Source: a virus (Duplodnaviria > Heunggongvirae > Uroviricota > Caudoviricetes). Taken from it: a stretch of 16,143 nt of DNA. Below the pieces are notes generated by a model. It worked only from the letters and a program-made list of their open reading frames with translations, ran no database searches and had not been told where the DNA came from. Shown piece after piece: positions 9,138-9,184 of this stretch. The DNA is taken from the IMG/VR virus record IMGVR_UViG_2660238511_000011; one strand, written 5' to 3'. Made by a program: the position numbers and the translations under genes. Position 1 is the first letter of the stretch. Each line of letters opens with the position of its first letter.

Positions 9138-9184
9138 AACAACGTGGAACAACCACGAACAAATAATTTACAAAAAATAACAAA
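9138..9184 (+). promoter_or_regulatory. Copy B of the AACAACGTGGAACAA motif with about 10-bp-phased AACAA repeats, overlapping a candidate late promoter on the minus strand
   Basis: AACAA units at 9138, 9148, 9158, 9169 (TACAA) and 9179. On the minus strand a candidate promoter reads TTGTTC (9142..9137), 16-nt spacer, TATTTT (9120..9115). Confidence 0.45.

Follow-up and report, generated by a model that had tools for sequence, protein, structure and literature searches.

The DNA analyzed here, referred to as the window, is a stretch of 16,143 nucleotides from an IMG/VR virus record. It begins with phoQ (positions 1–1461) and continues into an island with every gene on the minus strand. This island (W below; L-numbers denote compared loci, with L248 being phage P4 and L249 the CP4-57 element of E. 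coli K-12) is a capsid-forming PICI of the EcCIEDL933 type and a close relative of EcCIEDL933, the prototype capsid-forming PICI. Its integration site, between phoQ and roxA, is the same as that of EcCICFT073. The gene content comprises int, alpA, a D5-type primase gene, an HK97-type capsid/protease/portal module, and genes for HNH, TerS and TerL. A search of the window against Rfam found nothing. The coordinates of the features considered below are collected in Table 1.

Table 1. Genes, candidate sites and repeat arrays of the window, in order of position.
Feature	Position	Strand	Details
attL identity block AAATATGTCC (crossover region)	1460–1469	+	Overlaps the phoQ stop codon
Putative IHF-like site AATCAATGACTTG (WATCAANNNNTTR)	1484–1496	−	Between core and arm sites
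Doublet ACTACACC-ATTA-ACTACACC	1542–1561	+	12-bp period; putative Int arm-type sites, attL arm
attL-arm array	1579–1615	+	Units at 1581/1591/1601: AAACAA, GAACAA, ACACAA; degenerate ATACAG at 1610–1615
Hairpin/inverted repeat GTGGTGCCAG-GACG-CTGGGGCCAC	9061–9084	−	At predicted capsid transcript start; dG −17 kcal/mol
Candidate capsid-operon promoter	−35, 9112–9117; −10, 9090–9095	−	TTTACC, 16-bp spacer, TATTCT; from alignment columns
Capsid-upstream array	9137–9183	+	Units at 9139/9149/9159/9170/9180: GAACAA (three times), TTACAA, TAACAA; TTGTT on the gene strand
Intrinsic terminator	9186–9203	−	From a terminator scan; closes the replication-side transcription unit that lies upstream; T-run shared with the distal units of the array
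alpA	14351–14539	−	62 aa, winged-helix excisionase-type protein; Pfam PF05930, 5e-18
Best conserved sigma-70-like promoter candidate upstream of alpA	14601–14629	−	TTGCCA-17-CACAAT; promoter scan
int-alpA intergenic array	14822–14867	−	Units from 14862 to 14822: ATACAA, CAACAA, CAACAA, GAACAA, GAACAA
int	14914–16143	−	P4-like tyrosine recombinase with N-terminal arm-DNA-binding domain; Pfam Arm-DNA-bind_3 2.2e-17, Phage_integrase 1.1e-16

Two further observations concern the island. The major capsid gene (7765–8922, minus strand) carries an in-frame stop at 8095–8097, after ...KKYRKNAV; the gene is intact in EDL933 and RM6927, and the copy in the window may be a pseudogene or reflect a sequencing error. 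Directly after a terminator-like hairpin (1955–1967) lies a second family of phased repeats, four copies of TGTCAC with a 10–11 bp period (1974–2009, plus strand). These are kept with 4–5 units in L001, L004, L005, L157 and L229 and may be a packaging site (cosB, TerS or Rpp).

A pattern search of the window with ACAACGTGSAACAA returned exactly three matches, at 1581–1594 (+), 9139–9152 (+) and 14852–14865 (−). The copies at 1581 and 9139 are identical over the 15-mer AACAACGTGGAACAA, and the copy at 14852 has C for G. The original prediction, that the motif occurs three times with two identical copies and a third one base off, was therefore reproduced at the same coordinates, as was the placement of the copies: one close to the phoQ end, one ahead of the capsid operon and one directly past the int stop. 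It had also held that a shared 15-mer is not expected by chance; the 14-nt pattern had no match in 200 dinucleotide-preserving shuffles.

Each copy of ACAACGTGSAACAA heads an array of (S)AACAA units at 10–11 bp, with 3, 5 and 5 units. When the whole 16 kb window was scanned for ACAA cores chained at 9–11 bp, these three arrays were the only ones found; shuffled windows yielded a mean of 0.03 arrays of at least three units and none of at least four. The claim that each copy is followed by AACAA units at 10-bp intervals held for the phasing (10–11 bp) and failed for the sequence of some units, which read CACAA or TACAA. At least three direct repeats about one helical turn apart are a feature of the site arrays of winged-helix recombination directionality factors (RDFs) of the Xis, TorI, Apl and Vis type, and the arrays share it, in keeping with the suggestion that phased repeats of this kind are bound by excisionase-type winged-helix proteins. 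The 14-mer ACAACGTGNAACAA stands at the head of the attL-arm, capsid-promoter and int-alpA arrays, and of the attR-arm array in homologues, and is kept at the array start in W-type islands. The unit consensus is approximately S-G-A-ACAA, with the central C and the preceding S-G conserved, and is descriptive only because it was built from units chosen for ACAA.

In the attL arm, homology to E. coli genomes with an empty site stops at window position 1469, and the 10-mer AAATATGTCC recurs at the roxA-side junction in L001–L003. The consensus positions of the putative IHF-like site are kept in W and L001–L003, with a variable N4 spacer. The arrangement ACTACACC-N4-ACTACACC occurs as a single doublet in the window and is confined to att arms; a second, co-oriented ACTACACC doublet lies upstream of int in L001–L006. 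The units of the two doublets start at +86/+98 and −147/−135 from the start of the att core. The first unit of the attL-arm array begins 18 bp past the end of the doublet. The attR-arm site falls just beyond the end of the window, and its array is known from homologous islands, where this fourth array lies 55–95 bp upstream of the int start codon, between the ACTACACC doublet and the core. Doublet and array together form a 65-bp module that is co-oriented on both sides of the core. The attL-arm array, and in homologues the attR-arm array, adjoin the putative Int arm-type sites, as RDF site arrays do. The original prediction had not included this att-arm setting, the ACTACACC doublet beside the array or the attR-arm array.

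The doublets have close parallels in related elements. The annotated attP arm repeats of phage P4 are tandem doublets with a 12-bp period, co-oriented and located at about −133 and +76 from the core. Helper-embedded PICIs (HE-PICIs) have TGTATTGC doublets at −81 and +132 (PMC10111431), and we confirmed these doublets immediately upstream of HE-PICI int genes. The P4 (TTGGGGGCAT) and HE-PICI doublets resemble those of ACTACACC in their 12-bp period, their co-orientation and their asymmetric distances from the core. CP4-57 carries a TAGGCCCA-N4-TAGGCCCA doublet upstream of intA. Because the geometry is that of the annotated P4 arm repeats, the ACTACACC doublet was provisionally assigned to Int; because doublet sequence changes with the integrase clade while the geometry is kept, the likely partner is the arm-binding domain of Int. 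A 12-bp doublet on each side of the core, present at att only, is the P4-type arrangement, and it is found in the ACTACACC doublets and not in the AACAA arrays, which have a 10-bp period and 3–6 units and also occur far from att. By positional homology, the doublet is assigned as the better candidate for Int arm sites than the arrays. The doublets of P4, HE-PICIs, CP4-57 and W suggest a general arm-site layout for P4-family integrases. In CP4-57 (L249 1591–1614, upstream of intA), the doublet reads TAGGCCCA-TTGA-TAGGCCCA and an inverted copy follows about 20 bp on.

The int-alpA array begins 47 bp past the int stop and is present with 3–6 units in all W-type islands, where alignment shows conserved ACAA columns and variable spacers. 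It lies approximately 220–270 bp upstream of the best alpA promoter candidate, in which TTTGCCA is invariant among islands and a 10-bp indel leaves the 17-bp spacing unaltered. The island alignment did not resolve a promoter directly downstream of the array.

Three other features of this region were recorded. One is a conserved stem-loop with TTTG after it (14699–14727, minus strand), located between the array and alpA; one of its stem pairs is A-T, G.T or G-C depending on the island, and the element may act as an attenuator or terminate int. A strongly conserved block downstream of the array (14740–14790, minus strand; TTGATTTTTA...TACTG..TTTTTTATACACT.GCGAATCACTCTT) shows no clear promoter hexamers; a helper-phage inducer may act on it. 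Phage P4 (L248 9176–9205) has three 10-bp ‘ori type 2’ repeats (CCACTTAAAG) in tandem, roughly 150 bp ahead of vis, a position that parallels that of the array upstream of alpA.

The units of the capsid-upstream array are spaced at 10, 10, 11 and 10 bp. TTTTGTAAATTATTTGTTCGT is invariant in six diverged islands and the whole array is kept in five (alignment A1), although among islands sharing it capsid protein identity falls to 74% and the flanking sequence diverges immediately. The array is kept also in L022, despite a different Int clade. L210 and L022 have a terminator at the corresponding position, formed by a different stem sequence, and the ORF upstream of the array matched no family in Pfam or NCBIfam. 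A standard promoter scan upstream of the capsid operon returned no promoter; the one proposed in Table 1 was drawn solely from conserved columns, of which the TT of the −35 and the T, A and final T of the −10 are invariant in alignment A1. Relative to this candidate, the array units are centered near −56, −66, −76, −87 and −97, which would be a typical position for an upstream activator if the promoter holds. The hairpin at the predicted transcript start shows compensatory changes (CTCA/TGAG) in diverged islands and could be an RNA 5’ stem-loop or an operator.

Arrays in att arms were found in islands at phoQ/roxA, smrA/abgR and clpS/cspD, including the prototypes EcCIEDL933 and EcCICFT073. 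The int-alpA arrays are a feature of W-type islands and the capsid-upstream arrays of capsid-forming islands. It is the spacers that vary inside the arrays; ACAA cores and phasing are conserved. The 10-bp phasing, whose conservation in homologous elements had been proposed as a check, is maintained at three integration sites with unit numbers of 3–6. No arrays were present in approximately 110 kb of flanking E. coli chromosome (about 64 kb non-redundant). The idea that the motif is confined to islands stood with respect to these flanks and fell with respect to viral sequence at large, since most IMG/VR occurrences of the bare GAACAA triple, among the matches listed, lie in unrelated contigs. 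In a scan of IMG/VR for GAACAA-N4-GAACAA-N4-GAACAA, about 30 of the 154 matches listed were PICI-type arrays. A clear AlpA gene was found in the searched segment at 12/118 loci among the matches listed, or at 14 when weaker profile matches are included, and for this reason the bare triple is not regarded as specific to islands in a very large collection. Many unrelated viral contigs (L127, L135, L159, L174, L180 and others) have arrays of GGAACAA or CGAACAA with 10-bp periodicity; in their searched segments no AlpA gene was detected.

The relationship between the arrays and the alleles of AlpA and Int was also compared. Among 48 loci chosen independently of arrays, arrays were found in 2/6 with an SV[GS]W-wing AlpA and in 0/42 without, an association that is suggestive in a small sample. 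HE-PICIs and CP4-57, both of which have AlpA-family proteins, have neither these arrays nor arrays with other motifs, and a search of genome contigs for AlpA gave three loci only, with no useful diversity. In L005-type islands AlpA is 52% identical and the Int N-terminal domain 80% identical; both att arms of these islands retain GAACAA arrays, and upstream of alpA L005 has none. L183, L210 and L212 combine the L005-type AlpA with the capsid-upstream array. L022, which is capsid-forming, has an HE-type Int (41.6% identical), TGTATTGC arm doublets, a GAACAA capsid array and a second, W-like AlpA. Some helper-embedded capsid-forming islands have two tandem AlpA paralogues after int (L022 6700–7161); in L022 one is HE-type and the other W-like with an N-terminal extension, with a terminator between them, and the pair may represent a split of excision and regulation roles.

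The expectation that the island encodes an excisionase-type winged-helix protein was borne out for AlpA by its Pfam Phage_AlpA match and by structure comparison. Searched by sequence against the PDB, AlpA matched 8c3t at 2.6e-6. Its AF2 model has a pLDDT of 87, and the best Foldseek match was the GIsul2 excisionase 8c3t (TM 0.79), followed by MerR-type domains, RdfS, Pukovnik Xis and TorI (1z4h). By these measures, AlpA is an excisionase-fold winged-helix protein. Like the arrays of known RDFs, those described here are accompanied by a cognate candidate of this fold encoded next to int.

The AlpA of EcCICFT073 is 95% identical to that of the window, and its behavior has been published. It activates PalpA in a plasmid reporter, its expression alone leads to excision and replication, both of which need the island int and pri, and the activity of Pint is unchanged by it (PMC6092414). 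Transcription of alpA is activated by helper phages, and Vis is the P4 homologue of AlpA (PMC6092414). No paper defining the DNA targets of a PICI AlpA or showing its DNA binding was found in the literature search.

We consider it probable, at roughly 60%, that the arrays are cooperative AlpA sites with a dual role in recombination and regulation, comparable to those of 186 Apl, P4 Vis and TorI. AlpA would bind the conserved nucleation site ACAACGTGNAACAA and then the weaker (S)AACAA units one helical turn apart, so placing its monomers head to tail along a single face of the helix, and would bend the DNA. In both att arms, AlpA would act as an RDF beside the Int doublets, shaping the excisive complex of the P4-like integrase. 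The int-alpA array would serve the positive autoregulation already known for alpA. In capsid-forming islands, the capsid-upstream array, just past a terminator and about 55–100 bp upstream of the start of a putative weak promoter, would allow AlpA to turn on the capsid/packaging operon. This reading is favored because the Int arm-site role would already be filled by the ACTACACC doublets and because the AlpA of EcCICFT073 activates PalpA and suffices for excision (PMC6092414). Also in its favor are the excess of the arrays over chance, their conservation at three integration sites and absence from the flanks, the excisionase fold of AlpA, the capsid array of L022, the association with the SV[GS]W wing, and the published sites of TorI (PMC2951348) and Apl (PMC7498355).

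Several findings count against the AlpA reading. RDF sites on both arms are unusual, and the attL array is distal to the doublet rather than core-side. The int-alpA array, about 220–270 bp from the best promoter candidate, is far away for a simple activator, and Pint is unaffected by AlpA although an array lies in that region (PMC6092414). There are also HE-PICIs and CP4-57, which encode AlpA-family proteins without such arrays. As L005-type islands keep arm arrays, the presence of these arrays follows Int no less closely than AlpA, except if GAACAA is recognized by both alleles of AlpA. Together with L183, L210 and L212, these islands leave two options: recognition of GAACAA by both AlpA alleles, or a different protein acting at the arm arrays.

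If the binder is another protein, it could be a factor from outside the island, either a host winged-helix response regulator such as ArcA or the helper-phage inducer of alpA. We regard this as unlikely. The invariant block TGTAAATTATTTGTTC appears to resemble the ArcA direct-repeat box, GAACAA arrays persist across two AlpA alleles, and GGAACAA arrays with 10-bp spacing occur in many unrelated viral contigs without a detectable AlpA in the searched segment. The spacing is, however, mostly 10 bp, compared with 11 bp for ArcA-type boxes. On the other strand the units read TTGTTC, with all but one interval at 10 bp, compared with half-sites of the OmpR/PhoB type, presumably TGTTA-like and 11 bp apart. 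The arrays are confined to islands when these are compared with the ~110 kb of E. coli flanks, and they adjoin Int doublets in both att arms, which points to a role in recombination. In its favor, helper phages activate alpA transcription; against it, AlpA alone suffices for excision and autoactivation without a helper phage (PMC6092414).

Somewhat more improbable is that the N-terminal domain of the P4-like integrase uses the arrays as its arm-type sites, with the internal copies serving Int regulation of alpA and the capsid operon. Arrays on both att arms would be expected of such sites, the lambda arm sites P’1–P’3 are adjacent direct repeats too, and L005-type islands keep their arm arrays with an Int N-terminal domain at 80% and AlpA at 52% identity. 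The positions and 12-bp geometry of P4-type arm repeats are, however, taken by ACTACACC and not by AACAA, and the number of array units varies from 3 to 6. Since L022 keeps the capsid array with a different Int (41.6% identical) and TGTATTGC doublets, Int is not the binder at that array. PalpA, moreover, responds to AlpA alone in the plasmid reporter (PMC6092414).

It is very unlikely that the arrays are bound by another island protein, whether the small protein encoded upstream of the capsid array, a PerC-like regulator, DUF4222 or TerS. A small ORF and a terminator always precede the capsid array and PerC-family regulators are common in these islands, but the gene upstream of the array differs: orf100 of W is unrelated to the PerC-family protein of L001 (E 0.49), and EDL933 has a different hypothetical gene just upstream. 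EcCICFT073, L004, L005 and L006 have no TerS of this type but retain the other arrays, and the replication proteins vary (D5-type primase, DUF927, RepA helicase) with the arrays unchanged. The original prediction had named TerS as an alternative binder; this was not sustained, as EcCICFT073 and further PICIs devoid of this TerS carry the arrays in the att arms and at alpA. TerS and replication initiators were accordingly rejected as binders, their genes being variable or absent where the arrays persist.

Finally, intrinsic curvature from helix-phased A-rich pentamers, aiding intasome folding and promoter activity with no specific protein, would suit A-rich repeats phased at 10 bp that precede promoters or lie in att arms, places where a bend can help, but is highly improbable given that AACAA is no true A-tract, that the central C and preceding S-G are conserved and that the specific 14-mer ACAACGTGNAACAA is kept at array starts in W-type islands.

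Two other known kinds of element were compared with the arrays and rejected. Replication iterons of the P4 alpha type (GGTGAACAG) do not fit, the arrays being unchanged across islands with D5-type primase, DUF927 or RepA helicase; separate GGTGAACAG-type iterons are present elsewhere. The Pseudomonas aeruginosa AlpA antiterminator shares the Pfam family name, and terminators or hairpins lie near two of the arrays here. The arrays, unlike the loading site of that protein, are multi-unit direct repeats upstream of the proposed −35 elements and have a different sequence (PMC7969949).

AlpA has been called the master regulator of Gram-negative phage-inducible islands, and the arrays provide concrete candidate target sites for it. 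Should the AlpA reading be true, one helper-induced protein would both excise the island and drive its transcription, and the capsid operon of capsid-forming islands would be predicted to be controlled directly by AlpA. How AlpA governs the PICI cycle becomes a matter for direct experiment. The proposed division between ACTACACC doublets (Int) and AACAA arrays (AlpA) likewise offers a testable answer regarding the doubled motif of HE-PICIs.

The proposed system has its closest parallels in RDFs that are also regulators. In 186 Apl, P2 Cox and P4 Vis, as here, the same repeat motif is present at att and at promoters. Apl is a small protein whose DNA sites, direct repeats spaced by one helical turn, are found both at att and between promoters (PMC7498355). 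In the window, one repeat motif was found at att and at one or more candidate promoters. The present arrays differ in being on both att arms and at two promoters, and AlpA is published as activating, not repressing, its own promoter. In KplE1 (TorI/IntS), the excisionase is structurally similar to AlpA and binds five cooperative sites with a 5-bp core (GTTCG) in attL (PMC2951348). Three of the TorI sites, 2 nt apart, are located in the att arm with the int promoter, and Int arm-type sites are interleaved (PMC2951348). The TorI sites are on one arm only and repress PintS, whereas EcCICFT073 AlpA is without effect on Pint (PMC6092414), and KplE1 has no internal array at an operon promoter, unlike the island described here. 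A more tentative view, somewhat less probable than not, is that a phage-induced AlpA of 62 aa reads one phased-repeat code at four places, coupling excision, self-amplification and, in capsid-forming islands, the direct switching on of the capsid and packaging operon. As the arrays flank the core on both sides, unlike the arrangement in lambda and KplE1, AlpA filaments might bridge the two arms, or att and promoter DNA.
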